Assembly (NCBI GenBank): GCA_026396115.1
Contig: JAPLXL010000005.1
Span: 137,316 to 201,315 of the forward strand
Reading direction: 5' to 3'
DNA length: 64,000 bases
DNA from: Candidatus Nealsonbacteria bacterium
GTDB lineage: Bacteria > Patescibacteriota > Minisyncoccia > Minisyncoccales > RBG-13-42-11
The notes below the pieces were generated by a model, which was given only the letters and a program-made list of their open reading frames with translations, made no database searches and was not told where the DNA came from. Both the position numbers and the translations under genes were made by a program. Shown here one piece after another: positions 2,584 to 58,904 of the stretch; positions within the stretch are counted from its first letter, which is position 1; every line of letters begins with the position of its first letter.

Positions 2584-2638
2584 GCGAAGAGGACTTCGTC
2601 CTCTTCTTTACCTTCGCCCGCCAAGGGCGGGCTCGGTA
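2584..2638. repeat. palindromic mini-element copy (intergenic, mreB-gatC)
   Basis: ggcgaagaggacttcgtcctcttctttaccttcgcccgccaagggcgggctcggta. Confidence 0.7.
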
Positions 2639-2639
2639 T

Positions 2640-2930
2640 ATGATTACAAAAAAAGAGTTGCGACGTATCGCAAAATTAGCCAGACTCAGTATAACCAAAG
2701 ATGAGGAAGAGAGGTTTACAAAGGAGCTTTCTTCGATTTTGAATTATGTTGAAAAGTTAAAAGAAGCAGATGTTTCCGGGGTTGAGCCAACCAGTCATCC
2801 ATTTGGTGTTGAAAACGTGATGAGGAGTGATAAAAATAAAAAATTTGCGAAGTCAAAAAAATTATTAGAATTGGCGCCGGAAACCAAAGACGGTTATTTA
2901 AAAGTAAAGTCAATCTTTGAAATAAATTGA
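2640..2930 (+). CDS. gatC: Asp/Glu-tRNA(Asn/Gln) amidotransferase subunit C
   Basis: Start MITKKELRRIAKLARLSITKDEEERFTKEL typical of GatC; lies immediately upstream of gatA. Confidence 0.8.
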   Translation: MITKKELRRIAKLARLSITKDEEERFTKELSSILNYVEKLKEADVSGVEPTSHPFGVENVMRSDKNKKFAKSKKLLELAPETKDGYLKVKSIFEIN

Positions 2931-3020
2931 AAATTTATTGAAAAGTGAAATGAATTGAAAATTCATTGAACTCAAAGGAGAAATGAATCGAAGATTCATT
3001 GAACTTTTAGAAGTTGGTTA

Positions 3021-4508
3021 ATGGAACTTACAAATCTCACCATCGCTCAAATACATCAGGGTTTAATAAAAAAAGATTTTTCTGCTTCTGAACTTTGTAA
3101 AACTTTTTTAGATAAGATTAAAGAAAAAAATAAGGAAATTTTTGCCTTTCTGCAGGTTTGCGAAGATTTAGCCTTATCAAAAGCAAAAGAGATTGATGAT
3201 ATGATTTTGGCGGGATACGAGATTCCTTTATTGGCCGGTGTACCTTCGGCTATCAAAGATAATATTTTAGTTGAAAATATTCCTTGTACGGCAGGTTCAA
3301 AAATCCTTGAAGATTATATAGCTCCCTATGATGCCAGAGTGGTTAAGAAACTTAAAGATCAAGGAGTGGTAATTTTAGGAAAAACCAATTTGGATGAGTT
3401 TGCCATGGGTTCTTCTACGGAAAATTCGGCTTTTGGACCGACTCGCAATCCCCTTGATTTAACCAGGGTTCCCGGCGGGTCTTCCGGTGGTTCGGCTGCG
3501 GCCGTGGCAGCCAGATTATCTGTTTTTACATTAGGTTCAGATACCGGAGGTTCAATAAGACAGCCTTCTTCTTTTTGCGGAGTAGTTGGTTTAAAACCAA
3601 CCTATGGCGCAGTATCACGTTATGGGTTAATTGCTTTCGCTTCTTCTTTAGACCAAATAGGCCCTATTGCCAAGACCGTAGAGGACTGCCAGATTGTTTT
3701 TAATGCCATAAAAGGTAAAGATGAAATGGATTCAACCAGTGTGGAGGTTTCAAAAATTGAAAATTATAGGTCAAAGAGGCGTGCCTCTTCTTCACCTCCG
3801 CTGCGGCGTTCGGTAATTGAAAATTTATGCATTGGTGTTCCTAAAGAATATTTTGTCAAAGGTATTAATCCTGAAGTGGAGAGGGTAATTAAGCTAGCAA
3901 TTAAAAAATATGAGGAGATGGGCGCTTATATCAAGGAAATTAGCTTACCGCACACAGAATATGCTTTACCTTGCTATGCCGTAATTTCTTGCCCCGAGGC
4001 CTCGGCAAATCTGGCAAGGTATGACGCCATTAAATATGGTGAAATAAAAAATAAAAAATTAAAAATAAAAAGTTTATTTGATTATTATTTAATTGCCAGA
4101 GGAGAAGGTTTTGGAGCAGAGGTAAGAAGAAGGATAATGTTGGGAACTTATGCCTTGTCTGCGGGCTATTACGAAGCTTACTATTTAAGAGCTCAAAAGA
4201 TAAGAACTTTAATAAAAAATGATTTTGAAAGAGCTTTTAAAGAAGTTGATCTAATTTTTGCCCCGGTTTCTCCTTTCTTACCGTTTAAAATTGGAGAAAG
4301 AATTAATGATCCTCTTTCAATGTATTTGTCTGATATTTATACTGTCTCTGTTAATTTAGTCGGATTTCCCGCTCTTTCTCTGCCAATAGGCAAAGCAGCC
4401 CCCCTTCAAAATGGTGGTGATGGGTTGCCGGTTGGCCTCCAAATTATTGGAAAACCTTTTGAGGAAGATAAAATTTTAGAAATAGGAAAATTATATGCCA
4501 GCAATTGA
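3021..4508 (+). CDS. gatA: Glu-tRNA(Gln) amidotransferase subunit A (amidase), with an in-frame mini-element insertion
   Basis: Amidase signature [37 protein letters not shown]; inserted peptide [15 protein letters not shown] is encoded by a repeat copy. Confidence 0.9.
3773..3815. repeat. mini-element copy, in-frame in gatA
   Basis: aaagaggcgtgcctcttcttcacctccgctgcggcgttcggta. Confidence 0.7.
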
Positions 4509-5025
4509 AAACTTTCCTGAAAGTTTAATATCATTTTTTATTTCTCCGTCTTTTACCGATTGGCTGTTAATTATTAAAATTATTTTTATAGTTTTGTCTT
4601 TGCTGTTCATCTGTTTTATTATTTTTGCGCTTATGAAAACTTCTTGGTTAAAGTTTCGTTTTTCATATGATGTAGTTGAACTTTTAACTTATCGACCGTT
4701 TGGAGTTAGAATAATGGAAAAAAGTTGGAAAAAAATTGCAGCAAGAATAGATACGGGCTTAGAGTCAGAATATAAATTGGCAGTAATTGAGGCGGATAAT
4801 ATGATGAATGATACATTAAAAAGAATGGGATATGGGGGAGAAAGTTTAGGGGAGAGGTTAGAAAAGTTAACCGCAGCCACTCTTCCTGATATTGAAGGAA
4901 TTAGAGAGGTCCATCAAGTCCGCAATAATATTATTCATGATCCTAATTATAAATTATCTTTGAATGATACAAGAAGATTGTTAGACATTTTTGAGAAAGC
5001 ATTTAAAGATTTGGAAGCTTTTTAA
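4495..5025 (+). CDS. hypothetical membrane protein (N-terminal transmembrane helices)
   Basis: Open frame with a hydrophobic N-terminus; no recognised family. Confidence 0.35.
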
Positions 5026-5131: not shown

Positions 5132-5139
5132 CAAATTTC

Positions 5140-5215
5140 GCCGGCGTAGCTCAGCGGTAGTAGCAGGGTCTTCATAAGGCCAAGGTCACAGGTTCGAGTC
5201 CTGTCGCCGGCACCA
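5140..5215 (+). tRNA. tRNA-Met (elongator, anticodon CAT; tRNA-Ile2 not excluded), CCA encoded
   Basis: Hand-folded cloverleaf: acceptor GCCGGCG/CGCCGGC, anticodon loop TTCATAA, T-arm ACAGG-TTCGAGT-CCTGT, 3' ACCA. Confidence 0.7.
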
Positions 5216-5216
5216 T

Positions 5217-5295
5217 GCGGGTGTAGCTTAGTCCGGTTAAAAGCGCTGCCCTGTCACGGCAGAGATCGTGGGTTCAAATCCCATCGCCCGCGCCA
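5217..5295 (+). tRNA. tRNA-Asp (anticodon GTC), CCA encoded
   Basis: Acceptor GCGGGTG/CGCCCGC, anticodon stem-loop CTGCC-CTGTCAC-GGCAG, T-arm GTGGG-TTCAAAT-CCCAT, 3' GCCA. Confidence 0.8.
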
Positions 5296-5300
5296 AATTT

Positions 5301-5328
5301 CCCTCCCATTTTGATGGGCGGGTTTTTT
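5301..5328 (+). terminator. intrinsic terminator after the tRNA array
   Basis: Hairpin ccctcccat-tttg-atgggcggg (9 bp, one mismatch) followed by a T6 run. Confidence 0.4.
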
Positions 5329-5393: not shown

Positions 5394-6416
5394 ATGACCA
5401 AAATGAATCTAAAATTACTCAAAAATCGGGCGAAGGAAGAGATAGAAAAAGTTAAAGATTTAAAAGAATTAAACGAGATTTTTAATAAGTATCTGGGTAA
5501 AAAAGAAGAGCTTGCTTTAATTTTGCGCTCTTTAGAAAGACTTCCCAAAACCAAAAGAATGAAGATCGGAAAGAGCGCAAATGAACTTAAAAATTTTCTC
5601 AAGATTGAGTTTGAGAAAAAATCTCAAGAAATAAAAGAAAAAATTCAGAAAGAAGCTGAAGAAAAAGAGTGGATTGACATTACGGTTCCGGGGGAAAAGC
5701 CTGTTTTGGGCCATTTGCATCCTTTAACCATTGCTAAAAGAAAAGTTGAAGAAATTTTTCAAGTAATGGGTTTTTCTATAATTGAGGGACCGGATATAGA
5801 AACAGAGTGGTATAACTTTGATGCCCTAAATATACCAAAAGAGCATCCGGCCAGAGATATTTGGGACACTTTCTATCTTAAAAATGGATTATTGTTGCGA
5901 ACTCACACCAGTCCGGTGCAGATTCGTCATATGGAAAAAAACAATCCTCCTTTAAGAATAATTGTTCCTGGAAGCGTTTTCAGGCACGAAGCAACCGATC
6001 CTTCCCATGAGTTCCAACATTATCAGATTGAAGGACTAATGGTTGATAAGAGAATTTCAGTAGCTAATTTAAAAGCCATTATCGGAGAGTTTTTCCGCAG
6101 ATTTTTTGAAAAAGACGTTAAGTTTCGATTAAAACCGGATTATTTCCCATTTACCGAACCCTCTTTTGATATTGGTATAAGCTGTGTTATATGCAACGGT
6201 AAAGGATGCTCTGTTTGTAAAAAAAGCGGTTGGCTTGAAGTGGCCGGAGCCGGCATGGTTCACCCCAATGTTTTTAAAGCTTCGGGTTTAATTCCCAAAG
6301 ATTGGCAGGGGTGGGCATTCGGTTTTGGCTTAGAAAGATTAGCTATGCTTAAATACAAAATTAACGATATCAGGTTATTTCGTTCCGGCGATTTAAGATT
6401 CCTCACCCAATTTTAA
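5394..6416 (+). CDS. pheS: phenylalanyl-tRNA synthetase alpha subunit (contains a C4 zinc ribbon)
   Basis: Class II motifs, FPFTEPSFD; zinc ribbon CVICNGKGCSVCKK. Confidence 0.9.
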   Translation: MTKMNLKLLKNRAKEEIEKVKDLKELNEIFNKYLGKKEELALILRSLERLPKTKRMKIGKSANELKNFLKIEFEKKSQEIKEKIQKEAEEKEWIDITVPGEKPVLGHLHPLTIAKRKVEEIFQVMGFSIIEGPDIETEWYNFDALNIPKEHPARDIWDTFYLKNGLLLRTHTSPVQIRHMEKNNPPLRIIVPGSVFRHEATDPSHEFQHYQIEGLMVDKRISVANLKAIIGEFFRRFFEKDVKFRLKPDYFPFTEPSFDIGISCVICNGKGCSVCKKSGWLEVAGAGMVHPNVFKASGLIPKDWQGWAFGFGLERLAMLKYKINDIRLFRSGDLRFLTQF

Positions 6417-6422: not shown

Positions 6423-8636
6423 ATGGTATTTTCCTACAATTGGTTACAATCATTTTTTCAAAAAAGACTACCTACTCCTCAAAGATTAGCTGAGCTCTTG
6501 ACTCTTCACTTTGCTGAAGTTGAAGAAATAAAGAAGGTTGGTAGCGACTTTGCTTTAAATATTGATGTCAGGCCCAACCGGGCTTCCGATTGTTTTTCCC
6601 ATATGGGAATTGCCAGAGAAATTTCAGCAATTTGCGGTTTAAAATATCAGAATTTACCCAGTAAATTTAGAGAATTAAAAAACAAAAAAGCTAAAGATTT
6701 TGTTTCAGTAAAATTCAATGAATTTCCAATTCATTTCACCGTGGAGGTAAAAAATAAGAGAGCCTGCCCTCGCTACAGTGCCAAAGTAATCACTGACGTT
6801 AAAGTAGGTCCCTCACCAAAATGGATACAAGATAAATTAAAAGTCTGTGGTTTGAGACCGATCAATAATATTGTTGATATTGCTAATTATGTAATGCTGG
6901 AGACCGGTCAACCCCTACATGCTTTTGATGGTCAAAAGCTTGAAGGTAGAAAAATTATTGTCAGATTCGCCAAGGAAAGGGAAAAGATTATTACTCTGGA
7001 TGAAGAAAAGTATGATTTAGATGAAAATATTTTGGTCATCGCCGATGTTAAAAAACCAGTAGCCATTGCCGGAATTAAAGGCGGAAAACTTCCAGAAATT
7101 GATAAGAAAACAAAAATAGTGGTTTTGGAGTCAGCCAACTTTAATCCTCAAGTTATAAGAAAAGGTTCTAAAAAATTAAATCTCAAAACCGATGCTTCTT
7201 TAAGGTTTGAGCACGGCATAGATCCTAATCTGACAGAATTTGCAATAAATAGGGCAGCTTTTTTAATTCAAAAAATTGCTGAAGGTAAGGTTAGTTACGG
7301 ACTTGTTGATGTTTATAATAAAAAGGTTTTGCCGCAGAGAATCAAATTAGATTTAAATTATGTTGAGAAACTGCTCGGAGTAAAAGTTCCAAAAAAAGAA
7401 ATTAAAAACATTCTAAAAAAGCTGGGATTTCAATGTAAATCTACCAGAGATTCTTATGACGAAGAGGATAAATCCTCTTCTTTACCCTTCGCTGCGGCTT
7501 GGGTTATTGAGGTGCTGGTTCCGACTCGGAGATTAGATATAAGCATTCAGGAAGATTTAATTGAGGAGATAGGCAGAATTTATGGTTATGATAAAATTCC
7601 TTGTACTTCTCCAATATCTTCTTTGTTTCTGCCCCAAAAGAATTTAAATATTTTCTGGGAAGATTTTACCAAAAATATTTTAAAAGAAGCCGGATTTACT
7701 GAAGTTTATAACTATTCATTTTTTGGGGAAGAAGAAGCTAAACTTTTCGGATACCGAGCTTCCGAAGGAAGCGAGGGGGAAGAAAAGGACGAAGTCCTCT
7801 TCGCCCATAAAGAAGAAGAATTAATAGAAGTAGAAAATCCTTTAAGTCAAGAATATAAATATCTAAGGGCTAGTTTAATTCCTAATTTGTTAAAAAATGT
7901 TGAAAAAAATCAAAGATACTTTCCCGAAATGAAAATTTTTGAATTAGGAAAAATTTTCCAACCTCCCGAGCAACAGCGAAGGGGGAAGAAGAAGATTTAT
8001 CTTCTTCGCCCTCCGAAATCTGAAAATAGAATACTTGTTGGAGTAATTACAGGCGACGCTTTTTATGAAGTAAAAGGCGTAGTCGATTTACTTTTAAATA
8101 AATTAGGAATAGCTAATATTTGTAGGTATGATGAATATCCGAATGAATTAAAAAAATCAAAAACCTTCTGGCTACATCCACAAAAATGTGCTGAAATTAA
8201 GGTTGATCACCAAAAAATTGGTCTTTTGGGAGAAGTTTCTCCAAAAATTCTGAGCAGATTGGATATAAAAGAGAGAACGGTTTTGTTCGATATTGATTTT
8301 GAAAAACTTTCTCAATTGGCTTCAGAAGAACATGAATACCGGCCGATTTCTAAATTCCCGTCAGCCGTCAGAGATATAGCGGTTTTAGTCTCGAGAAATG
8401 TAAAAATAGCAGAAGTTCTAAATAAAATTTATGATACTGGCGGAAAGATAATTCGGGATGTTGACCTCTTTGATATTTACGAGGGAGAGGAGATTCCTGC
8501 AGGGAAAAAGAATTTGGCTTTTCATATAATTTATCAGGCCCAGGATCGAACCTTATCTTCGGAAGAGATAGATGAATTACAAAATAAAATAATTAAAATT
8601 CTGGAAAAAAATCCAGAGTGGACTGTGAGAAAATAG
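6423..8636 (+). CDS. pheT: phenylalanyl-tRNA synthetase beta subunit (short form), with three in-frame mini-element insertions
   Basis: B1, B3/B4 and FDX-like C-terminal domain pattern. Inserted peptides DEEDKSSSLPFAAAW, YRASEGSEGEEKDEVLFA and RRGKKKIYLLRPP are each encoded by a repeat copy. Confidence 0.85.
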   Translation: MVFSYNWLQSFFQKRLPTPQRLAELLTLHFAEVEEIKKVGSDFALNIDVRPNRASDCFSHMGIAREISAICGLKYQNLPSKFRELKNKKAKDFVSVKFNEFPIHFTVEVKNKRACPRYSAKVITDVKVGPSPKWIQDKLKVCGLRPINNIVDIANYVMLETGQPLHAFDGQKLEGRKIIVRFAKEREKIITLDEEKYDLDENILVIADVKKPVAIAGIKGGKLPEIDKKTKIVVLESANFNPQVIRKGSKKLNLKTDASLRFEHGIDPNLTEFAINRAAFLIQKIAEGKVSYGLVDVYNKKVLPQRIKLDLNYVEKLLGVKVPKKEIKNILKKLGFQCKSTRDSYDEEDKSSSLPFAAAWVIEVLVPTRRLDISIQEDLIEEIGRIYGYDKIPCTSPISSLFLPQKNLNIFWEDFTKNILKEAGFTEVYNYSFFGEEEAKLFGYRASEGSEGEEKDEVLFAHKEEELIEVENPLSQEYKYLRASLIPNLLKNVEKNQRYFPEMKIFELGKIFQPPEQQRRGKKKIYLLRPPKSENRILVGVITGDAFYEVKGVVDLLLNKLGIANICRYDEYPNELKKSKTFWLHPQKCAEIKVDHQKIGLLGEVSPKILSRLDIKERTVLFDIDFEKLSQLASEEHEYRPISKFPSAVRDIAVLVSRNVKIAEVLNKIYDTGGKIIRDVDLFDIYEGEEIPAGKKNLAFHIIYQAQDRTLSSEEIDELQNKIIKILEKNPEWTVRK
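7458..7504. repeat. mini-element copy, in-frame in pheT
   Basis: gacgaagaggataaatcctcttctttacccttcgctgcggcttgggt. Confidence 0.75.
7752..7806. repeat. mini-element copy (opposite orientation), in-frame in pheT
   Basis: taccgagcttccgaaggaagcgagggggaagaaaaggacgaagtcctcttcgcc. Confidence 0.75.
7986..8025. repeat. short mini-element copy, in-frame in pheT
   Basis: gcgaagggggaagaagaagatttatcttcttcgccctccg. Confidence 0.6.
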
Positions 8637-8640
8637 AATT

Positions 8641-10578
8641 ATGGTGCATAAACCAAAAACAACAAAAAAAGAGTCAACTTACGAGGCAAAAGACATTTAT
8701 GTCTTAGAAGGCCTTGAACCGGTCAGAAAAAGACCGGGAATGTATATTGGTTCCACGGGACCGGAAGGTCTTCATCATTTAATTTGGGAGTGCGTTGATA
8801 ATAGTTTAGATGAGGCAATGGCTGGCTACGCTAAAAACATTGAACTAATTCTTTTGCCCGGGAATAAAGTTAAAACAACTGATGATGGTAGGGGAATTCC
8901 AGTTGAAAAGCATCCTCAAACGAAAAAATCTGCCCTGGAAACGGTAATGACTACCCTTCATGCCGGAGCAAAATTCGGCGGTAAGGCCTATCAAGTAGCC
9001 GGCGGACTTCATGGGGTTGGAGTTTCGGTGGTTTGTGCTCTTTCAAAATGGATGAGAGTCGAAGTTTGTCGCAACGGTATCCGTCATTGGCAGGAATATG
9101 TGAGAGGAAAAGCCATAACAAAAGTAAAGAAAGGTGAAAGATGCAGACAAATCGGCACCTCGGTTTATTTTGAGCCTGACCCCGAAATTTTCAGCGATAT
9201 TAAATTTGATTTAAAGAAAATTTTAAATCATCTTCGTCAGCAGGCCTATTTAAGCAAAAAAGTAAAAATTATCGTTGTTGACCAGAGAGAAAAACCGGAC
9301 AAATCCTACACTTTTTATTTTGAGGGAGGACTTGCATCTTATGTTAAACATTTAACCAGGGGAGCAGTAAAACGTCATCCGAATATTTATTATGGTTCGG
9401 GAGAGAAAAATGGAATGTTGATTGAGTCCGCTTTTCAATATACCGAAGAATACGAATATTTTGAGGAAAGTTTTGCCAACAATATTTATACTGGCGAAGG
9501 CGGGACGCATTTAACCGGCTTTAGAACCGCCCTGACGAGAACTTTTAATGATTATGCTAAGAAAAATAGTCTTTTAAAGAATAACGATGACAATTTATCG
9601 GGAGAAGATGTCAGAGAAGGGTTTAGCGGCGTAATTTCGGTAAAATTGAAAGATCCTCAATTTGAAGGTCAAACAAAGGCAAAATTAGGAAATCAGGAGG
9701 CAAAAACAGCGGTTGAGACAATAGTTTCTGAAACCCTGTCAGATTTTTTAGAAAGAAATCCTCAAGACGCCCGGGCAATTATTGAAAAATGCATTCTTTC
9801 TTCAAGAGCCAGGAAAGCAGCCAAGGTTGCCAGAGACACTGTTTTAAGAAAAGGTATCTTGGAAGGATTAGCTTTGCCCGGTAAATTGGCTGATTGTACT
9901 TCAAAAAAACCGGAAGAATCAGAACTTTATATTGTTGAAGGGGAGAGTGCCGGAGGTTCAAGCCGCCAAGCCAGAGATAGAAGGTTTCAGGCGATTCTGC
10001 CTTTGAGAGGAAAAATTTTAAATGTTGAGAGGGCACGATTGGATAAGATTTTGTCTTCAAAAGAAATAAGGTCTTTAATCATTGCTTTAGGAACAGCGAT
10101 CGCCGAAGATTTTAATATAAAAAAAGCCAGATATCATCGGATTATCATAATGACTGATGCCGACGTTGATGGTTCGCATATCAGGACTCTTCTTTTAACT
10201 CTTTTTTACCGTTATTTTAGACCTCTTATTGAAGCAGGTTTTTTATATATCGCCCAACCGCCTCTTTATCGTATTCAGGTCGGGAAAAAAATAGAATATG
10301 CTTATAGCGAGGAAGAAAAAAATAAAATTTTAGAAAAAATAAAAAAAGAAAGGACAATTGGTTTATCTCTTCAAAGATATAAAGGTTTGGGAGAAATGAA
10401 TTCCGACCAGTTGTGGGAAACTACCATGAATCCGGAAAAAAGAGTGTTTTTGAAAGTAAATATTGAAGAAGCGAAAGAAGCGGATAGAATTTTTGATATT
10501 TTAATGGGAGATGAAGTTCTGCCTCGAAAGAAATTTATCCAAGCACACGCTAAGAAAGTCAAGAATTTAGACGTGTAA
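8641..10578 (+). CDS. gyrB: DNA gyrase subunit B (ParE not excluded)
   Basis: GHKL ATPase motifs (YVLEGLEPVRKRPGMYIGST, IWECVDNSLDEAMAGY), Toprim EGESAGG, PLRGKILNVE, C-terminal tail. Confidence 0.75.
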   Translation: MVHKPKTTKKESTYEAKDIYVLEGLEPVRKRPGMYIGSTGPEGLHHLIWECVDNSLDEAMAGYAKNIELILLPGNKVKTTDDGRGIPVEKHPQTKKSALETVMTTLHAGAKFGGKAYQVAGGLHGVGVSVVCALSKWMRVEVCRNGIRHWQEYVRGKAITKVKKGERCRQIGTSVYFEPDPEIFSDIKFDLKKILNHLRQQAYLSKKVKIIVVDQREKPDKSYTFYFEGGLASYVKHLTRGAVKRHPNIYYGSGEKNGMLIESAFQYTEEYEYFEESFANNIYTGEGGTHLTGFRTALTRTFNDYAKKNSLLKNNDDNLSGEDVREGFSGVISVKLKDPQFEGQTKAKLGNQEAKTAVETIVSETLSDFLERNPQDARAIIEKCILSSRARKAAKVARDTVLRKGILEGLALPGKLADCTSKKPEESELYIVEGESAGGSSRQARDRRFQAILPLRGKILNVERARLDKILSSKEIRSLIIALGTAIAEDFNIKKARYHRIIIMTDADVDGSHIRTLLLTLFYRYFRPLIEAGFLYIAQPPLYRIQVGKKIEYAYSEEEKNKILEKIKKERTIGLSLQRYKGLGEMNSDQLWETTMNPEKRVFLKVNIEEAKEADRIFDILMGDEVLPRKKFIQAHAKKVKNLDV

Positions 10579-14516: not shown

Positions 14517-15842
14517 ATGAAACTTTCTAAAACCGATCTTAAAATTTACGTTTTAATCAAAAAAGAAATTCAGCGCCAAAAAGATGGCTTGGTTTTGATT
14601 CCTTCGGAAAATTACGCCAGCCCGGCCGTACTCTCTAGCATGGGTACGCCTTTAAGCAATAAGTATTCCGAAGGTTATCCAAAAAAGCGATATTACGGCG
14701 GCAATGAATTTATTGACCAAATTGAACAAATTGCTATTGACCGGGCAAAAAAATTATTTAAAGCAGAACATGCCAACGTTCAACCGCATTCCGGTTCTCA
14801 GGCAAATGCCGCAGTCTATCTGGGTTTATTAAATTACCGCGATAAAATTTTGGGAATTGATTTGTCAGCCGGCGGACATTTGACTCACGGCTCTCCGGTT
14901 AATTTTTCGGGTAAATTATATAAATTTGCTTATTATGGAGTTAATCCAAAAACAGAAAGGGTTGACTTGAAAGAAGTAGAAAAAATCGCCCTCAAGTTTA
15001 AGCCAAAGCTAATTATTATCAGCACTACTTCTTATTCAAGGACCCTTAATTTTAAGGCCTTCCGAAAAATTGCCGATAAAGTTGGAGCTTACTTGATGGC
15101 AGACATTGCCCATATTGCCGGTTTGGTGGTAACCGGTCTTCATCCTCACCCTTTTCCTTATTGCGATGTGGTTACCACCACCACTCACAAAACCTTAAGA
15201 GGCCCTCGTGGCGGATTAATATTGTCTAAAATCAAAGATAGATTGGATGCAAAAGGAAAACTCAATTTAGCTCAAAAAATTGATAAAGCTGTTTTTCCGG
15301 GGACGCAGGGAGGACCCTTAGATCATGTTATTGCTGCCAAAGCCGTTTGCTTTTTGGAAGCAATGAAACCTACTTTCAAAAAATATCAAAAGCAGATACT
15401 TATTAACGCCAAAGCTATGGCTGATGAATTCATAAAACAGGGGATAAGAGTGGTTAGCTGTGGCACAGACAACCATTTAATGGTCATCGACGTTTCTCCT
15501 TTTGGAGACAGTTCTAAAAGAATCCAGGACGAATTGGATAAAGTTGGAATTTATGTTAATCGCAACTCCATTCCGTTTGATAAAAGACCGCCCTATAATC
15601 CTTCGGGCATCAGATTGGGATCACCGGCCATTACCAGCCGGGGATTAAAAGAAAAAGAGTGCCGATATATTGTGCGACTGATTGTCAGATTAATAAAAAA
15701 TATTAACAACCAAGAAATTAAAAACCGAGCCCCACGTCAGTGGAGCGAAGGTGGAAAAGAGAACGAAGTTCTCTTTGACATAAAAAAAGAAGTTAGCAGA
15801 ATTACAAAAAAATTCCCCATCTATGCGGATTTTCAATGGTAA
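14517..15842 (+). CDS. glyA: serine hydroxymethyltransferase
   Basis: PLP-binding region TTTTHKTLRGPRGG and overall SHMT architecture. Confidence 0.9.
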   Translation: MKLSKTDLKIYVLIKKEIQRQKDGLVLIPSENYASPAVLSSMGTPLSNKYSEGYPKKRYYGGNEFIDQIEQIAIDRAKKLFKAEHANVQPHSGSQANAAVYLGLLNYRDKILGIDLSAGGHLTHGSPVNFSGKLYKFAYYGVNPKTERVDLKEVEKIALKFKPKLIIISTTSYSRTLNFKAFRKIADKVGAYLMADIAHIAGLVVTGLHPHPFPYCDVVTTTTHKTLRGPRGGLILSKIKDRLDAKGKLNLAQKIDKAVFPGTQGGPLDHVIAAKAVCFLEAMKPTFKKYQKQILINAKAMADEFIKQGIRVVSCGTDNHLMVIDVSPFGDSSKRIQDELDKVGIYVNRNSIPFDKRPPYNPSGIRLGSPAITSRGLKEKECRYIVRLIVRLIKNINNQEIKNRAPRQWSEGGKENEVLFDIKKEVSRITKKFPIYADFQW

Positions 15843-16746
15843 AAAAGAAGCTGAAAAAATCTTATTGGATTTAGGAAAAAGAATATCTAAAGAAAAACTT
15901 AAGCCTAAATTAGCCGTAATCCTGGTTGGCGAGGATAAAGCATCGAGGCTCTACATAAAATTAAAAAGAAAAGCGGCCAAAAAAATTAGTATAAAATTAG
16001 TTCTTTATAAGTTCAAAGAAGCCACAGTAGAAGAAAAAATTATTCAAAAAATAAAAACTTTAAACAATAATTCTTCAATTCATGGAATTATTGTTCAATT
16101 ACCTCTTCCTAAAAAATTCAACCAGAATAAAATTGTCGGGGCGGTAAATCCCAAAAAAGACGTTGACGGTTTTCAAAAAAACGGTTGGTTTCTGCCGGTA
16201 TTGCCTTCGGCAATTTTATTTACTATTAAAAAGGCAATGAAAACATCTTTCAAAAAAAAGAAGGTCGTGGCACTGGTAAATTCAAAGATTTTCGGGCAAA
16301 GGCTTAAATCTTTTTTTAAAAAAGAGGGAATAGAATTAGATTATATTTTAAGGAAAAAGCATTCTTTTACCGAGCTTCCGAGGGAAGCGAGCTCGAAGAA
16401 CATTCATTCTTCTCGACCCTTCGCTGCGACTCGGGTAGATGAAGAAGAAGATTTTATCTCTTCGACTTTTGAAAATAAAAATAAATTGAAAAGGGCAGAT
16501 ATTATTATTACAGTTTTGGGTTCCCCCAATGCAATTTGGGGTGATATGATAAAGAAGAAGGCAATTTTAATTGACGCCGGCATTAGTAAAATTGCAGCAA
16601 AAAAAGTGGTTGGCGACGTAAATAGAGAAAGCGTAAAAGAAAAAGCAGCTTTCTTAACTCCGGTACCAGGCGGCATCGGCCCCTTAACGGTCGCTTTATT
16701 ATTAAAAAACGTTTATTATGCGGCAAAATATAGCCAAGTTAATTGA
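15823..16746 (+). CDS. folD: bifunctional methylene-THF dehydrogenase/cyclohydrolase FolD, with an in-frame composite mini-element insertion
   Basis: N-terminal KLKPKLAVILVGEDKASRLYIKLKRKAAKK and C-terminal TPVPGGIGPLTVALLLKN; the inserted ~33-aa segment FTELPREASSKNIHSSRPFAATRVDEEEDFISS is a repeat copy. Confidence 0.8.
   Translation: MRIFNGKKEAEKILLDLGKRISKEKLKPKLAVILVGEDKASRLYIKLKRKAAKKISIKLVLYKFKEATVEEKIIQKIKTLNNNSSIHGIIVQLPLPKKFNQNKIVGAVNPKKDVDGFQKNGWFLPVLPSAILFTIKKAMKTSFKKKKVVALVNSKIFGQRLKSFFKKEGIELDYILRKKHSFTELPREASSKNIHSSRPFAATRVDEEEDFISSTFENKNKLKRADIIITVLGSPNAIWGDMIKKKAILIDAGISKIAAKKVVGDVNRESVKEKAAFLTPVPGGIGPLTVALLLKNVYYAAKYSQVN
16368..16466. repeat. composite mini-element (about 2 units), in-frame in folD
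   Basis: ttaccgagcttccgagggaagcgagctcgaagaacattcattcttctcgacccttcgctgcgactcgggtagatgaagaagaagattttatctcttcg. Confidence 0.7.
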
Positions 16747-17416
16747 CCAAACATTTCTTAAGAAAGGAGCAACTGAGGAAGAAATAAAAAAGGTTTGCCA
16801 GGAAACAAAGGAATACGATTTTCGGGGTTTTTGTATTTTCCCGGAATATACAAAATTAGCCAAAGAATTTCTTAAAGACACCGATATTAAGGTTACGACC
16901 TTGATAGATGAGCCAACCGGCGCCAGTTTGCACGAAGAAAGGATTAAAATGGTAAAGAAAGCTAAAGATGAGGGTTCCGACGAAGTTGATGTGGTAATGA
17001 AAATAGATGATTTTAAGAATGGAAAATACGACGAGGTTTTAAATGATTTAAAAGAAATCTGCAAGATTCTGCCGGTAAAAGTAATTATTGGTTCAGGTTA
17101 CCTGACTGACGAAGAAATTAAAAAGGCATCGGAAATTGTTAAGGTCTCGGGAGCAATTTGCGTAAAAACTGCCACTATAAACGATCCTTTGGACCGGTCG
17201 GAGTTGCCGGAAAAGGCAAAACATATCAGGATTATGAAAGAATCGGCCCCCGGTTTATTGGTTAAAGCGGCGGGCTCCATCAGAAATTTGCAGGACTTGG
17301 AAATGATGGTTGCCTCGGGAGCTGATATTATAGGCACCAGTTCCGGAGTTGAAATAGCAAATGAGGCAACAGAAAAAGAAACAAAAGCAACAAAAGACGG
17401 CAGATTAGTTGAATAA
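16718..17416 (+). CDS. deoC: deoxyribose-phosphate aldolase
   Basis: LIDQTFLKKGATEEEI..., catalytic Lys region CVKTATI, GADIIGTSSG. Confidence 0.75.
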   Translation: MRQNIAKLIDQTFLKKGATEEEIKKVCQETKEYDFRGFCIFPEYTKLAKEFLKDTDIKVTTLIDEPTGASLHEERIKMVKKAKDEGSDEVDVVMKIDDFKNGKYDEVLNDLKEICKILPVKVIIGSGYLTDEEIKKASEIVKVSGAICVKTATINDPLDRSELPEKAKHIRIMKESAPGLLVKAAGSIRNLQDLEMMVASGADIIGTSSGVEIANEATEKETKATKDGRLVE

Positions 17417-17431
17417 AATTAAAACATAGTC

Positions 17432-18037: not shown

Positions 18038-18040
18038 CAT

Positions 18041-20173: not shown

Positions 20174-20185
20174 ATAATTAAAAAA

Positions 20186-42938: not shown

Positions 42939-43250
42939 ATGACTGAAACAAAAGGAAACGATAAAGAATTCCTTGAGTATTTAGTGAAGGCTTTAGTTGA
43001 TAACCCAGAAGATGTCAAAATCGACCGCAAGGTTGATGAAATGGGAGTTTTGCTTTCTTTGAAAGTGAACTCCGAAGATATGGGTCAGATTATCGGCAAA
43101 GCCGGTTCTACTGCCAGAGCAATTAGAGGTTTGGTTCGAATTGTCGGTCTTAAAAATCACGCCAGAGTGAATTTGAAGATCGAAGAACCGGAAGGTGGCA
43201 GAGAAACTCGAGAAATAAAAACAGAATCTATTGAAGATTTAAAGTTGTAA
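42939..43250 (+). CDS. khpA: KH-domain RNA-binding protein KhpA (UPF0109), copy 1, with a C-terminal extension
   Basis: LVKALVDNPEDVKIDRKVDEMGVLLSLKVNSEDMGQIIGKAGSTARAIRGLVRIVG; classic position between rpsP and trmD. Confidence 0.7.
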   Translation: MTETKGNDKEFLEYLVKALVDNPEDVKIDRKVDEMGVLLSLKVNSEDMGQIIGKAGSTARAIRGLVRIVGLKNHARVNLKIEEPEGGRETREIKTESIEDLKL

Positions 43251-43305: not shown

Positions 43306-43379
43306 TTTACCGAGCTTTCACGGATGAAAGCGAAGGTGAAAATGAAGGCAAACTTCGCAGAAGGAAAACTTCATCGCCT
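43306..43379. repeat. mini-element copy immediately upstream of the trmD start codon
   Basis: tttaccgagctttcacggatgaaagcgaaggtgaaaatgaaggcaaacttcgcagaaggaaaacttcatcgcct. Confidence 0.6.
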
Positions 43380-44070: not shown

Positions 44071-44115
44071 AATGAATCGCAGTTCATTGAAGGTTGAAAT
44101 AAATCAAAGATTCAT
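44071..44115. promoter_or_regulatory. two tandem 7-5-7 palindromes (AATGAAT-N5-ATTCATT family) immediately upstream of tRNA-Tyr
   Basis: gaaatgaatcgcagttcattgaa and a degenerate gaaataatcaaagattcattgaa; the same motif occurs at 2921-3000 and 54027-54045. Confidence 0.5.
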
Positions 44116-44120
44116 TGAAT

Positions 44121-46938: not shown

Positions 46939-47280
46939 TTGTTAAAATTAACACTTATGGCAAAAGCAACTATTGACAAAGAATTTCTTGAATACATTAT
47001 TAAAGGCCTAGTTGACTACCCCGATGATGTAAAAGTTGAAAGAAAAGTTGACGAGATGGGTGTTTTGCTCAGTTTGAAAGTCAACTCCGAAGATATGGGT
47101 CAGATTATCGGAAAGGAAGGTTCAACTGCTCGGGCAATAAGAAACCTTATTAGAATTGTAGGTCTCAAAAATCATGCCCGGGTTAACTTAAAGATTGAAG
47201 AACCAGAAGGCAGAGTAGCTGAAGTAAGAAAAGCTCCTGCCCGAAAGAAAGAAAGCGATTTGGATAGTTTAAATCTTTAA
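46939..47280 (+). CDS. khpA: KhpA paralog (copy 2) with a different C-terminal extension
   Basis: VDEMGVLLSLKVNSEDMGQIIGK is identical to copy 1, but the DNA carries many synonymous differences (an old duplicate or xenolog). Confidence 0.65.
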   Translation: MLKLTLMAKATIDKEFLEYIIKGLVDYPDDVKVERKVDEMGVLLSLKVNSEDMGQIIGKEGSTARAIRNLIRIVGLKNHARVNLKIEEPEGRVAEVRKAPARKKESDLDSLNL

Positions 47281-47427: not shown

Positions 47428-47485
47428 CCCGAGCGATAGTAAAGAGGAGAGAAGAGAATTTATCCTCTACGAACTCATAAAAAAT

Positions 47486-52371: not shown

Positions 52372-53427
52372 ATGAGGAAGCGTTTATTTTTTATTATCTT
52401 AATAATTATGATTGCTGCGATTTCTTTCTGGTTGATTTTTTTGCCAACAGAATCTTTCTCCAAAAAAGAGGTAATTTTTAGCGTGGAAATAGGAGAAGGG
52501 TCAAAAGACATTGCCCTGAACTTGGCAAAAGAAAATTTGATAAGATGGGCGTCAATGTTCAGAGTTTATGTTATGGTAAGAGGAATTGCCGGAGACCTTA
52601 AAGCCGGCCAATACCTATTGTCTCCTTCAATGAATATTCCCCAGATAGCAGAGAAACTTTTTAAGGGCGATGTAATAAAAGAAAAAATTACCATAATTGA
52701 GGGGTGGAGTTTGAGAACCATCGGTTTTTATTTTGAAGACAGGGGAATGTTCCAGGCCGAAGAAGTTTTGGACATGGCTGCCAAAGATTTTTCTGACGAG
52801 TTTGACTTTTTGAAAGATAAGCCAAAGAATTTAGGGTTGGAAGGTTATCTTTTCCCCGACACCTATGAGATAAGAAAAAATGAGAGTTTGGAAAATATCG
52901 TCAAAAAAATGCTAAGCAATTTTGACAGGAAATTAACATCCGATTTAAAGGAAGAAATCAAAAGGCAGCAAAAATCAATTTTTGAAATAGTGACAATGGC
53001 CAGCATCTTGGAAAAAGAAGTCAGAACTGTTGAGGATAAAAAGATTGTCTCCGGAATTTTCTGGAAAAAAATCAATAATGGTGAGCCGTTATATAGTTGT
53101 GCGACAATAGCTTATATTTTAGGAAGAGAAAATTGGACGTTCGAAGAAGATGAATCTTCTTCTCTCTCCCGCGTTGGCGCTTGGACGTTCGAAGAAATGA
53201 GAAGAGAAATTGCTTCGGGAAAAGATATTGATTCGCCTTATAATACATATAAATATCAGGGTCTTCCTCTGGGTCCCATTTCCAACCCCGGGCTTGAAAG
53301 CATAATGGCTACAATCTATCCCGAAGAGAGCGATTACCGGTATTATTTATCCACTCCTGAAGGAGAAACTATTTTTAGTAAAACCTTGGAAGAGCATAAT
53401 ATAGCCAAGGCAAAATATTTTGAGTAG
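52372..53427 (+). CDS. mltG: endolytic murein transglycosylase MltG (YceG-like), carrying a mini-element insertion flanked by a 16-bp target duplication
   Basis: N-terminal TM and YceG domain; the insert peptide EDESSSLSRVGA lies between duplicated WTFEE segments. Confidence 0.75.
   Translation: MRKRLFFIILIIMIAAISFWLIFLPTESFSKKEVIFSVEIGEGSKDIALNLAKENLIRWASMFRVYVMVRGIAGDLKAGQYLLSPSMNIPQIAEKLFKGDVIKEKITIIEGWSLRTIGFYFEDRGMFQAEEVLDMAAKDFSDEFDFLKDKPKNLGLEGYLFPDTYEIRKNESLENIVKKMLSNFDRKLTSDLKEEIKRQQKSIFEIVTMASILEKEVRTVEDKKIVSGIFWKKINNGEPLYSCATIAYILGRENWTFEEDESSSLSRVGAWTFEEMRREIASGKDIDSPYNTYKYQGLPLGPISNPGLESIMATIYPEESDYRYYLSTPEGETIFSKTLEEHNIAKAKYFE
53133..53195. repeat. degenerate mini-element copy in mltG flanked by a perfect 16-bp direct repeat (TTGGACGTTCGAAGAA)
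   Basis: ttggacgttcgaagaa-gatgaatcttcttctctctcccgcgttggcgc-ttggacgttcgaagaa. Confidence 0.7.
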
Positions 53428-53490
53428 GCGAAGAGGATAAATCCTCTTCTTCACTTTCACTTTCACTTTCGCTACGCGAAAGCTCGGTAA
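53427..53490. repeat. mini-element copy ending at the DJ-1 start codon, containing a (CACTTT)3 micro-expansion
   Basis: ggcgaagaggataaatcctcttcttcactttcactttcactttcgctacgcgaaagctcggtaa. Confidence 0.75.
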
Positions 53491-54036
53491 ATGCCAAACT
53501 TACAAGAGAAAAAAATTGCGATAATCATTGCCTTTCGGGATTTTCGGGACGAAGAATATTTTACTCCAAGAGAAATTTTAGAGAAAGCCGGGACTGAAAT
53601 AAAAACCGTCTCAAACAAAATTGGAACTGCTATTGGCGCCGATGGGGGAGAAGTTGAGATTGACTTTTTAGTTTCTGAATTAAATTCGGCTGATTTTGAT
53701 GCAGTGATTTTTATTGGCGGGTCGGGATGCCTGAAAAATCTTGATAATGAAGATTCATACAAGATAGCGAGAGAAGCGGTCTCTCAAGATAAAGTTCTGG
53801 GAGCTATTTGTATTGCGCCAACAATTTTAGCCAAAGCCGGAGTCCTGTCCGGCAAAAAAGCGACGGTCTGGACAAGCCCGATGGATAAGTCAGCCGTTAA
53901 AATTTTAAAAGACAATGGAGCGGTTTTTGAGGATAATCCGGTGGTGGCAGACGGAAAAATTATTACGGGTTCTGGCCCTGAATCCGCCGAAGAATTTGCC
54001 ATGAAAATCATTGGACTCGAAGGTGAAATGAATTGA
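53491..54036 (+). CDS. DJ-1/PfpI family protein (class I glutamine amidotransferase-like)
   Basis: FDAVIFIGGSGC...AICIAPTILAKAGVLSGKKATVW nucleophile-elbow pattern. Confidence 0.75.
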   Translation: MPNLQEKKIAIIIAFRDFRDEEYFTPREILEKAGTEIKTVSNKIGTAIGADGGEVEIDFLVSELNSADFDAVIFIGGSGCLKNLDNEDSYKIAREAVSQDKVLGAICIAPTILAKAGVLSGKKATVWTSPMDKSAVKILKDNGAVFEDNPVVADGKIITGSGPESAEEFAMKIIGLEGEMN

Positions 54037-54080
54037 AAATTCATTGAGCTCTTGACAGGAATTTAAATTGATATAATATT
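54027..54080 (+). promoter_or_regulatory. 7-5-7 palindrome AATGAAT-TGAAA-ATTCATT abutting the -35 of the rplJ promoter (TTGACA ... TAATAT)
   Basis: Palindrome at 54027-54045 overlaps the stop of the upstream gene; TTGACA at 54053-54058; TAATAT at 54075-54080 (16-nt spacer). Confidence 0.45.
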
Positions 54081-54087
54081 AAAACAT

Positions 54088-54195
54088 ATCCGCAGACAAC
54101 AGGTAGCTTATTGAGCGTAAAACCTGTCTAGGAAAAATACACGGGTCCGACTCGTGCAAATTGGTTGTCTGCGGGAAACGCAGATTTTTTATTAC
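54088..54195 (+). ncRNA. putative ribosomal protein L10 (rplJ) autoregulatory leader
   Basis: About 110-nt 5' UTR with a long-range stem ccgcagacaacc...ggttgtctgcgg and an internal hairpin, directly upstream of rplJ. Confidence 0.4.
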
Positions 54196-54199
54196 CACC

Positions 54200-54720: not shown

Positions 54721-54780
54721 TTACCGAGCTTTCGCGTAGCGAAAGCGAAGGTGAAGAAGAGGACGAAGTCCTCTTCGCCA
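54721..54780. repeat. mini-element copy (intergenic, rplJ-rplL), near-consensus
   Basis: ttaccgagctttcgcgtagcgaaagcgaaggtgaagaagaggacgaagtcctcttcgcca. Confidence 0.8.
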
Positions 54781-55786: not shown

Positions 55787-55787
55787 G

Positions 55788-55835
55788 TCGAAGAGATAAA
55801 TCTCTTCTTCACCTTTCATTGCGATTCGGGTACAT
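55788..55835. repeat. mini-element copy (intergenic, upstream of upp)
   Basis: gtcgaagagataaatctcttcttcacctttcattgcgattcgggtaca. Confidence 0.65.
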
Positions 55836-57049: not shown

Positions 57050-57075
57050 AGTTCACACCTCCTTTTTTGAAAATA

Positions 57076-58005
57076 TTAACCAAATAATTTTCCTTGATTG
57101 TTTAATTTGATTTTCTTCCTCTGCCGGCTTTCTCGCTCCTGAACAACTGGCCTTATTTTTTTAAAAGCATCTTCCATGGCCCGATAAATTCTGTCTTTTC
57201 TCCCTTCCTCTAAATACTTTGACAATTTAGCTAAACGCTGAATTTCCCGGGACTTTACTCTTTTTAGATAAGGCATAACTTTTATGGATAAAAGTCCGGC
57301 CAAAAGATTGTTTTTGCCTCCGGAAATTTCACTGACGATTCGCTTTAATCTTTCGTTTTTTACTCCTTCTTGCAGTTCCTTTAAAAATTTAGCTAGTCTT
57401 TGATAAACCAAGACAAAAATCCTCTCTATTCTAAGCTTTTCCTCAATCAATTTCCGGGTTCTTAATATTATCCCCCAATTTATTTCTTCAATTTCATTTA
57501 ATCTTTCGAATAAATCAACCGTAGCTTTACTAGTTTCAATTGGCACTTTTCCAGATTTTCCCCCCTTTTTATTCTTAAGCGGTGGTATCTGCTTCAATCT
57601 TGTTTGGGCTTTTGCTTTAAATTTATTGGTCACCCGACCAATTTCTGCCTGACATTTTTGAAAAGATAAGCGAATAGAGTATTGTTCTGCTTGGCTTAGT
57701 TCCTGGGGCTCTAAAAATTTAGCAGTAACTTCTTGAAGGATTTTGATTACTTTACTTAATTCCTGAATCTCTCCTGGCAGGAGCAGCTTTTCTTTTCCAA
57801 TTTGAACACTCAATCCCTGATATTGATCAATTATGTGTGTTCCTTGCCTTATGGCATCATTAATATCCTGGAGAACATTTTCAATTGAATTTGGTTTTTC
57901 GCCCCAAAAAATTCGTAGCTTCCCTTCTTTATCAACTAAGATTTTCCGGCTGATTCTCTGAACTATTTCAAAATCAACTTTCAAGTTCTTCATTTTAATC
58001 ATCAC
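57076..58005 (-). CDS. hypothetical protein, co-directional with and upstream of the PRTase
   Basis: ORF only. Confidence 0.3.
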   Translation of the reverse strand: MMIKMKNLKVDFEIVQRISRKILVDKEGKLRIFWGEKPNSIENVLQDINDAIRQGTHIIDQYQGLSVQIGKEKLLLPGEIQELSKVIKILQEVTAKFLEPQELSQAEQYSIRLSFQKCQAEIGRVTNKFKAKAQTRLKQIPPLKNKKGGKSGKVPIETSKATVDLFERLNEIEEINWGIILRTRKLIEEKLRIERIFVLVYQRLAKFLKELQEGVKNERLKRIVSEISGGKNNLLAGLLSIKVMPYLKRVKSREIQRLAKLSKYLEEGRKDRIYRAMEDAFKKIRPVVQERESRQRKKIKLNNQGKLFG

Positions 58006-58055
58006 CTTCCTTAAATAATATTTTTTAAAAAACTGATATTAACTATAAAAGATAT

Positions 58056-58718
58056 TTGGCTAATTGTCAATTTTTTGATAGAATAAAATATATGACAACC
58101 TATACGTTTATTGATGCTTCAAATCTTTTTTATGGCGGAGAGAAAAGCTTGGGATGGAAAATAGATTATCAAAAACTTCTCAACTATTTGAAAGAGAAGT
58201 ATTTGATATCCAAAGCTTTGTATTTCGGTGGGGTTGAAATACGTAATTTTGAATTTAACTACCTTGAAAATGAAACAGTTCCTATTTATGAACTTGAAAA
58301 ATATTTAGTCGACGTAATTAAAAATAAAGCAAATAAATTAAACGAAGCAGAATTATTACTTATCGGGCGCCATTTGCAAAGAGTGCGTTTTTACTTGAAG
58401 TTAAAAGAATTTGGTTATGAATTACATCTTAAGCCGGTAAAATTATATGAACAAGAAGATGGAACAACAAGAAGGAAAGCCAATTGTGATGTTGAGATGA
58501 CTTTCTATCTAATGAAAGAGAAAGATAATTTTGACCGCGCTATTATTTTATCTGGCGATGGGGACTTCTTGCCAGTTTTAAAGCATTTAAGAAATCAAGG
58601 GAGAGAAATTATTATATTAGCCCGTGGTCCACGAACCGCAAAAGAGATACGCCAATTCGCTGCTGCTAAGTTCAGAGATTTTGAATATTTGAAATATAGA
58701 TTAAAGTACGAAGAATAA
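58056..58718 (+). CDS. NYN-domain (LabA-like, PIN-related) protein
   Basis: FIDASNLFYGG...CDVEMTFYLM...ILSGDGDFLPVL pattern of acidic residues typical of NYN/LabA nucleases. Confidence 0.6.
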   Translation: MANCQFFDRIKYMTTYTFIDASNLFYGGEKSLGWKIDYQKLLNYLKEKYLISKALYFGGVEIRNFEFNYLENETVPIYELEKYLVDVIKNKANKLNEAELLLIGRHLQRVRFYLKLKEFGYELHLKPVKLYEQEDGTTRRKANCDVEMTFYLMKEKDNFDRAIILSGDGDFLPVLKHLRNQGREIIILARGPRTAKEIRQFAAAKFRDFEYLKYRLKYEE

Positions 58719-58904
58719 AATTCTTCGCCATCTACGCTAACGCTTGATAATGGAAGAAAAGTAAAAGGAGCGGACTCATATAGAATCCACTCCACGTTTA
58801 GTGGCTTTATATTAGCAGTTTAATAAAAGCTTGTCAAGAGATTATAGCATCTGGACATCTAATATAAATTCTTTGTTGAAAGAAGCTTTAACTTAAAAAT
58901 CAAA

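Follow-up and report, generated by a model that had tools for sequence, protein, structure and literature searches.

What are the short, G+C-rich palindromes that recur throughout a stretch of core genes in Candidatus Nealsonbacteria, and how do they come to lie inside coding sequences that remain open? The stretch in question (hereafter the window, to whose 64,000 nt all coordinates refer unless a related locus is named; G+C content 37%) comes from a member of Candidatus Nealsonbacteria, within the Candidate Phyla Radiation (CPR, or Patescibacteria). From the letters alone, an earlier examination (the sequence-only reading) had described a dense set of small palindromic mobile elements, placed in frame in core genes in the manner of Rickettsia palindromic elements (RPEs). 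This core claim is now backed by presence/absence polymorphism among close relatives and by covariation of both hairpins of the element. We consider it probable, at roughly 85%, that the repeats are non-autonomous, selfish, mobile double-hairpin DNA of 45-60 bp that spreads within Candidatus Nealsonbacteria and related CPR genomes.

Searches with nhmmer, a covariance model and a repeat finder delineated 24 loci with about 28 units in the window (Table 1). The units are 44-62 nt long, typically 45-60 bp, occur about once per 2.5 kb and sum to 1,341 nt, or 2.1% of the window, with a G+C content of 50%. The pattern of the second hairpin, GGCGAAGAGGA-N5-TCCTCTTC, is matched 9 times, versus 0.03 expected by chance. 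The two-hairpin module had been reported from at least 23 sites, and all 23 were recovered both by nhmmer and by the covariance model (R1, built from 11 copies), which yielded 94 hits in 167 kb of DNA from the window and its relatives; a full copy inside glyA (15724-15779), absent from that list, brings the number of loci to 24. Some entries required revision: the site given as 7986 falls midway within copy 7965-8010, the one given as 26333 belongs to a decayed copy starting at 26311, and the cluster at 18625, read as about three units, comprises unit 1 (18626-18680) and, behind it, unit 2 (18683-18783) with an insert nested in the loop of its hairpin 2. The copies at 24131, 47424, 53133 and 58708 are partial or weak. 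The supposed composite at 16368 is indeed a nested one of 99 nt, and copy 53427 has the (CACTTT)3 expansion that had been ascribed to it and, again as described, lies between a stop codon and the start codon that follows. Intergenic copies had been considered the best preserved; the two top-scoring copies are intergenic, but the genic copies at 25977, 15724 and 7753 have covariance model scores nearly as high. No Rfam family matched the elements at its gathering threshold, the best hits by E-value lying far below their cut-offs.

The family consensus reads A-CC(C)GAGC-[variable hairpin 1]-GCGAAGGT-GAAGAAGAGGA-loop-TCCTCTTCGCC-(T). The long form (type A) is (T)A-CC-GA-GC[stem-loop-stem]GC-GAA-GGT-GAA-GAAGAGGA-loop(3-5)-TCCTCTTC-GCC-(T)A; the short form (type B, about 46 nt), in which hairpin 1 has no inner stem, is ACCC-GAGC-CGCA-GCGAA-GGGT. 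Hairpin 2 is also found solo, at 58709 and as a polymorphic 23-nt copy in a relative (L006), and elements occur in tandem (18626 and 18683) as well as nested (the folD composite at 16369-16466 and gatB unit 2). Single copies fold with z-scores of -3 to -6.5 relative to shuffled sequence. In an alignment of the 27 best R1 matches from the window and seven related loci, 94.3% of the stem cells were paired, versus 84.3% in shuffles and 42-52% when the partners were slid. Compensatory changes on both sides were seen in 13 of the 20 stem pairs, both stems covary, and none of 500 shuffles reached the observed values. The stems exist in such variants as TTCC/GGAA, TTTCGC/GCGAAA, CCCGCC/GGCGGG, GAGGAC/GTCCTC and GAGAAC/GTTCTC, while the unpaired motifs (GA, GCGAAGG and GAA) are constant. 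A kink-turn interpretation of the GA/GAA internal loop was ruled out by inspection, the bulge length being unfit.

Orthologous DNA was available from four related genomes (loci L001-L007, L072 and L073), in long aligned blocks about 84-98% identical to the window. A systematic scan for indels over 26 kb of aligned DNA showed that most of the 40-100-nt length differences that separate the window from its relatives correspond to this element, in both directions. Sites 2583, 7459, 7753, 7965, 15724, 16368, 18626, 19288, 21634, 21881, 25975, 49298, 53142, 53427 and 54723 are filled in the window and empty in a relative; conversely, sites in gatC, in gatA, in the pheS-pheT spacer and elsewhere are filled in relatives only. 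Thus, the elements are mobile now or were so recently. All three pheT sites are polymorphic among orthologues whose PheT proteins share 82-92% identity (89-96% over aligned columns, gaps left out), with a baseline length of 675 aa compared to 737 aa in the window. GatB ranges from 480-482 to 550 aa and has two independently polymorphic sites, including a hot-spot loop with 0, 1, 2 or 3 units depending on the strain. Orthologous copies diverge about twice as much as the surrounding DNA (12.4% versus 6.8%) and the copy at 26311 has decayed to 25% G+C, so that the family spans a range of ages.

The family extends beyond the immediate relatives. A strict type A pattern gave 64 matches in a collection of species-representative genomes, nearly all of them in metagenome-assembled genomes (MAGs) of Nealsonbacteria, Parcubacteria or Paceibacteria; the carriers include a complete Nealsonbacteria genome of 639,534 bp and a single-cell genome. 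Model R1 found 118 copies in the 428 kb of these loci. Matches in two Dehalococcoides-type bins and a Pseudomonadales bin lack the hairpins and are due to chance, and true matches are confined to CPR genomes. There were no hits of the strict pattern in viral contigs and no similarity to plasmid records. In the other genomes, 42% of nhmmer hits lie inside long stop-free open reading frames (ORFs), compared to 78% of random positions; the elements are thus depleted from genes yet still common in them.

Within the window, 18 units (about 60%) lie in frame in 11 genes, namely gatA, pheT (three copies), glyA, folD, gatB, the miaB-miaA fusion (two copies), thrS, mltG, one gene without a family match and one gene for a secreted protein. 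The ORFs are all intact, as had been claimed, and the identities of gatA, pheT, glyA, folD, gatB, miaB-miaA, thrS, mltG/yceG and trmD are supported by NCBIfam and Pfam matches above curated cut-offs. The copy at 43309 does lie upstream of what is probably the true trmD start: residue 41 is the first to be covered by the TrmD profile match, and relatives have a TrmD of 226 aa. The fused miaB and miaA genes form a 684-aa ORF (20202-22256, minus strand), and the fusion is kept in relatives (634-665 aa).

The lengths of genic inserts are invariably multiples of three (45, 48, 51, 54, 57 and 99 nt), whereas those of intergenic inserts, counted by hand, are mixed (57, 51, 58, 63, 46 and 46 nt). Excision at the RNA level is ruled out, because genic inserts are always multiples of three and free of stop codons while intergenic lengths vary. 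Orientation is also biased, with 14-15 sense and 4 antisense units in genes versus 2-3 sense and 7 antisense in intergenic regions (Fisher P 0.01-0.02). The sense frames in use encode E/K/S-rich peptides, and among the antisense frames it is the hydrophilic ones that are read. The third sense frame, which contains a TGA, is read in a single copy, that at 7965, in which GGG has replaced the TGA. Selection against stop codons in all six frames, as had been suggested, overstates the case: of the 6 frames, 5 are open in the type A consensus and 4 in that of type B, and comparable openness is reached by about 11% of consensus shuffles and by 3.6% of 54-mers from the window, so that it is only mildly unusual. 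The profile match of GatB is interrupted precisely where the element cluster lies. In an AlphaFold2 model of GatB built on an alignment of 90 sequences, the predicted local distance difference test score falls below 50 at residues 200-254 and 410-434, which span the element peptides; in the model these form coil that links strand 187-197 to strand 258-263 and helix 389-412 to helix 440-451. Genic copies are probably translated, giving disordered loops in essential proteins that are otherwise intact.

At most sites, the empty allele turns into the filled one by addition of the piece A-CC..GCC-T between T and A or a similar dinucleotide, which creates apparent TA..TA flanks. Most insertions add the element and 0-2 nt (apparent target duplication), preferentially at T|A. 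The junctions are exact at 7753 (L001 versus L003), 19288, 16368, 25975, 21634, 18626, 10669 and 10865, and one flank substitution is required at 2583, 21881 and 7459. The piece at 53427 is shorter by one base and lies inside a TAA stop codon, TA|A becoming TAG...GGT-AA-ATG. The joined ends of the element read ..CTTCGCC-T|A-CCGAGC.., and empty sites (for example AATCGCCTACCAATCC, ATTCACCTAAATACCGAG and TTTTCGGATAT) resemble such joined ends, CTCTTCGCCT|ACCGAGC, at a mean of 7.6 versus 6.2 of 17 positions (P ~2e-4), a resemblance that is unchanged against controls restricted to T|A.

Table 1. Double-hairpin elements of the window (CM, score in the covariance model R1; empty or filled refers to the orthologous site in the related locus)
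Element and context	Position	Strand	Score and state in relatives
Type A, between mreB-like stop codon and gatC start	2583-2637	-	CM 78.3 bits; L001 and L003 empty, site reads TAAAATG
Partial copy in gatA, antisense	3770-3818	-	Common to L001 and L003; L002 sequence differs here
Type B in pheT, antisense, peptide DEEDKSSSLPFAAAWV	7459-7504	-	48-nt insertion; L001 and L002 empty, L003 filled
Type A in pheT, sense, peptide RASEGSEGEEKDEVLFA	7753-7805	+	CM 71.1 bits; 54-57 nt missing in L002 and L003; junction exact, L001 versus L003
Type B in pheT, sense	7965-8010	+	48 nt, window only; frame normally with TGA, here mutated to GGG
Type A in glyA	15724-15779	+	CM 72.5 bits; L005 empty, L002 filled
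Nested composite in folD, type A with reverse type B inserted	16369-16466	+	99-nt insertion; L005 empty, L002 filled
gatB unit 1, type A	18626-18680	+	57 nt missing in L005; entire cluster missing in L007
gatB unit 2, type A, another element nested in hairpin-2 loop	18683-18783	+	Nested insert seen in CM alignment of orthologous L005:10584-10688
Short copy in gatB, peptide ERSEVKKRAKPSSP	19290-19332	+	45 nt missing in L007
Type B in miaB-miaA, sense to gene	21631-21676	-	48 nt missing in L007
Type B in miaB-miaA, sense to gene	21883-21930	-	48 nt missing in L005, L006 and L007
Type A, intergenic	22820-22869	+	CM 62.6 bits; absent in part or entirely from L005 and L006
Fragment in 542-aa ORF without assigned function	24122-24157	-	18-nt piece missing in L005 and L006
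Type A in thrS, sense to gene	25977-26029	-	CM 74.5 bits; 54 nt missing in L005, exact junction
Decayed AT-rich copy, dnaE-thrS spacer	26311-26388	+	CM 52.6 bits, GC 0.25; intact orthologous copy in L005
Type B right after signal peptide of 860-aa protein with C39-like domain	32295-32341	+	
Degenerate type A directly 5' of likely trmD start	43309-43379	+	CM 46.3 bits; L072 and L073 empty
Degenerate type B abutting 3' end of tRNA-Thr	47428-47473	+	L072 and L073 empty
Type B directly behind stop codon	49298-49343	-	44 nt missing in L072
Partial copy in mltG/yceG, antisense	53142-53186	-	48 nt missing in L072, present in L073
Type A with (CACTTT)3, inserted into mltG TAA stop	53427-53488	-	62 nt missing in L073; empty site GAGTA|AAATG
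Top-scoring type A, rplJ-rplL spacer	54723-54779	+	CM 80.6 bits; L073 empty
Type B, intergenic	55787-55832	-	CM 27.6 bits
Hairpin 2 alone, overlapping stop codon of NYN-domain gene	58709-58738	-	Weak nhmmer hit; similar 23-nt solo hairpin polymorphic in L006 at window 24529

Covarying stems combined with constant unpaired motifs point to a trans-acting enzyme that would read the shape of the hairpins rather than their sequence and mobilise the elements. The likeliest candidate would be a single-strand transposase of the HUH/Y1 type, similar to those of the IS200/IS605 insertion sequences (IS) or to RAYT, the transposase associated with repetitive extragenic palindromic (REP) elements; alternatively, a recombinase may act on an intermediate with joined ends. 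Selection would then filter the insertions, such that within genes only multiples of three persist, oriented and framed so as to encode, without stops, a hydrophilic peptide rich in E, K and S that lies in a permissive loop. Reverse-oriented insertion into the TA of a TAA stop codon would regenerate a stop (TAG), which helps to explain why intergenic copies are mostly reverse-oriented and lie directly on stop codons.

Several observations weigh against selfish mobility of this kind. No transposase or recombinase was found among 38 ORFs of the window, namely its larger and unannotated ones, by NCBIfam and Pfam searches, and all-against-all clustering of the ORFs from about 0.6 Mb of fetched loci revealed no multi-copy ORF; the mobilising enzyme is therefore purely one that we infer. 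Presence patterns clash with a single tree, since the window has site 7459 in common with related genome G3, site 7753 with G1 and site 15724 with G2, which implies either inter-strain recombination or recurrent gain and loss, and some apparent gains may be products of such recombination or precise losses. The junctions are not uniform, nor is the length of target duplication fixed: it is mostly 0-2 nt, but site 47428 has a repeat of 3 nt and site 54723 an imperfect one of about 7-8 nt, and the replacements at 15724, 2843 and 6421 are unclean. No fixed tetra- or pentanucleotide precedes the element, the left flanks (GGAT, GATT, TTTT, GCTC, GCCT and GAAA) being just T-rich. G:T and A:C mispairs, which could have distinguished a structure formed in RNA from one formed in DNA, are balanced (12 versus 9) and single out no strand. 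Finally, translation of the inserts is deduced from intact reading frames. As to a source of the enzyme, neither the window nor the 0.6 Mb of loci yielded a related autonomous IS that shares the ends of the element, and the window yielded no RAYT (Y1) gene; 5' modules without hairpin 2, as would be expected at the ends of a longer autonomous element, were represented only by degenerate copies or chance matches, and transposase terms had no hits in the supplements of the Nealsonbacteria DGGOD1a genome paper.

A more far-reaching proposal, which we regard as doubtful, is that the repeats represent an undescribed class of bacterial double-hairpin mini-elements that would integrate via joined ends, in a site-specific or microhomology-guided manner and without a classical transposase, and that, together with at least one further family, would continuously remodel loops at the surface of essential proteins throughout Nealsonbacteria and Parcubacteria. 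Selfish DNA in frame would in that case be a general and major source of protein-length variation in the ultra-small genomes of CPR bacteria.

[quoted passage not shown] However, the elements have no terminal inverted repeats, their 5' end reading (A)CCGAGC and the reverse complement of their 3' end GGCGAAG, and so are not classical MITEs. Where flanks are not TA, they differ as predicted for a fixed inserted piece and not for a duplication (TA/TG at 19288, TA/TT at 16368, A..T at 10669 and none at 53427). Moreover, the stems covary instead of keeping a binding sequence, so that a DDE transposase binding inverted repeats fits less well than an enzyme reading hairpin shape, and no DDE gene was found among the window ORFs searched or in the 0.6 Mb of loci. 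We therefore judge a MITE origin unlikely.

Slightly less likely still is that the repeats are not selfish but signals selected by the host at the RNA or DNA level, such as terminators, mRNA stabilisers or REP-like protein-binding sites. The stable folds of single copies agree with such a role, as does the location of intergenic copies, which are mainly reverse-oriented and directly behind stop codons. In the reverse orientation, hairpin 2 is followed by a weak T-rich tail, and a terminator scan flagged it at 53430 on the plus strand. The scan also flagged hairpin 2 at 49318, 54779 and 58728, but on the minus strand, opposite to genes on the plus strand, and these matches have no bearing on termination of those genes. 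A signalling function is at odds with the share of units in coding sequence (about 60% in the window and 42% in other genomes), with empty alleles at the same intergenic sites in close relatives whose genes are intact, with the twofold faster divergence of orthologous copies relative to flanking DNA, and with the lack of an Rfam match. A host role of the intergenic copies, in weak termination or in uncoupling TAAAATG stop-start overlaps, is possible but unsupported beyond one weak match, terminator-like and on the coding strand, at 53430.

It is very improbable that the segments are ordinary lineage-specific low-complexity insertions or expansion segments of proteins, alike in composition only and immobile: the encoded peptides are rich in E, K and S and the same GatB loops were hit in several lineages, but one and the same nucleotide module recurs in either orientation, in more than one reading frame and also between genes, with similarity at the DNA level, conserved unpaired motifs, covarying stems, and empty and filled alleles among strains about 84-98% identical in aligned DNA. 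An artefact of metagenome assembly or binning is hardly credible, for although all the sequences come from MAGs or metagenome contigs, the same insertions appear in independent NCBI, JGI and ENA assemblies, keep reading frames open, and have counterparts in a complete genome and a single-cell genome.

How do mobile double-hairpin elements of this kind compare with known repeats? The closest functional analogue is the RPE, and the closest structural analogues the GC clusters and double-hairpin elements of mitochondria. RPEs are about 100-150 bp long, and in the 1.27-Mb genome of R. conorii they occur about once per 29 kb. They are small palindromic repeats of a reduced genome, inserted in frame into unrelated housekeeping genes; they encode a conserved peptide, seem to leave the host proteins functional, have no known transposase, and number 44 copies in R. 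conorii (Ogata et al. 2000, as summarised in the review PMC10969869). The Nealsonbacteria elements share with RPEs the in-frame insertion into unrelated protein genes with the host ORFs left intact (18 units in 11 genes); by description they are set apart by their length of 45-60 bp, an about tenfold higher density, the two-hairpin architecture, nested and tandem arrangements, and a CPR host. The double-hairpin elements of Allomyces mitochondria, which Paquin et al. are said to have described in 2000, reportedly consist of two hairpins and occur in coding regions. Yeast mitochondrial GC clusters such as GC42 have stems that are conserved relative to the loops and a 2-nt target (AG), are without a known transposase, and can merge (PMC4478555). 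As in mitochondria, the elements described here are G+C-rich hairpins in an A+T-rich, compact genome; unlike the organellar elements, to which they are unrelated in sequence, they inhabit a bacterial genome and a large share of them lie in frame in genes.

Among bacterial repeats, REP elements and the bacterial interspersed mosaic elements that they form are likewise imperfect palindromes recognised as hairpins, lack terminal inverted repeats and duplicate the target little or not at all, and some copies here start with (G)TAG|G.., comparable to the GTAG head of REPs. However, REP elements are strictly extragenic and their RAYTs are Y1/HUH transposases, whereas about 60% of the units here are genic and no Y1 gene was found in the window. 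Elements derived from IS200/IS605 have hairpins near both ends, no terminal inverted repeats and no target duplication, which is matched here by two covarying hairpins and by exact junctions with 0-2 nt added at most sites; members of this group insert 3' of a fixed tetra- or pentanucleotide, which is lacking on the left of the insertions described here. Correia elements and RUP, both MITEs with TA targets, resemble the Nealsonbacteria family in being small, non-autonomous, abundant and often flanked by TA, but they have clear terminal inverted repeats and are mostly intergenic, whereas our elements lack such repeats and are largely genic. Full-text literature searches and one Nealsonbacteria genome paper contained no description of such elements in CPR/Patescibacteria.

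CPR genomes are regarded as extremely streamlined, and yet about 2% of this 64-kb core-gene region would be selfish hairpin DNA. Between 1 and 4 strain-variable insertions are tolerated in each of the aminoacyl-tRNA synthetases, the Gat amidotransferase and the tRNA-modification enzymes; these insertions are presumably translated and amount to a natural, strain-resolved experiment on insertion-tolerant protein loops. The elements are a likely cause of the protein-length heterogeneity of CPR bacteria (675-743 aa for PheT and 480-550 aa for GatB) and offer a compact system in which to seek the enzyme behind RPE-like and mitochondrial GC-cluster-like elements. Because they supply or displace start and stop codons, the repeats will affect gene calling, and also MAG assembly and strain typing.

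A second palindrome, GAAATGAAT-N5-ATTCATTGA, of 23-33 nt and unrelated to the main family, is present in 6 copies versus 0.34 expected. It is found at 2919-3002 (three tandem copies in the gatC-gatA spacer), 6706-6738, 44096-44118 and 54025-54047; the copy in pheT is a 33-nt in-frame insertion that encodes the peptide FNEFPIHFT and is missing in L002 and in more distant PheT proteins. Just downstream of one of these repeats, a ribosomal protein L10 leader (Rfam RF00557, 46.2 bits) occupies 54072-54199, upstream of rplJ. Further inserted peptides, LDEATASSRRVAGARV, VVEASPHLPPRSTSWS, YNPSSTSSRRAGPY and LRPSHHPPVSSPL, recur at various positions in PheT and GatB of relatives (proteins P0005, P0015, P0055, P0079, P0125, P0129, P0143 and P0197), which suggests additional element families in the clade. 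With this second family and the recurrent peptides, the phenomenon is broader than the main family.

Other local variation was also observed. Short tandem repeats are polymorphic among strains, namely (CACTTT)3 in copy 53427 (53445-53468) and (AAGAT)n in L006 (window 19706), and the gatA gene of L002 carries TCACTNAG four times (6320-6360) where the window has the element at 3770. The tRNA-Met/Met/Asp cluster (5136-5323) is accompanied in relatives by extra genes that are missing from the window (L003 7923-8612 and L002 7993-8829). In L003, the product is a 229-aa helix-turn-helix protein, which may be homing-endonuclease-like, beside or within a tRNA gene, and in L002 it is a Ku-like ORF of 278 aa; considered as mobilising enzymes, neither had any link to the element. 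The gyrB gene of L002 (12033-15272, 1079 aa) contains an intein (Pfam Intein_splicing), which the gyrB of the window (8641-10578, 645 aa) lacks at the corresponding site (about 9953-9962). In L001, a phage-like island (16700-22100; DUF6166, YopX, HNH and helicase) takes the place of the thymidylate-metabolism genes found at 13-14.5 kb of the window. Finally, a 236-nt direct repeat with 76% identity (42960-43195 and 46975-47210) corresponds to two paralogous genes for small KH-domain (KhpA-like) proteins.

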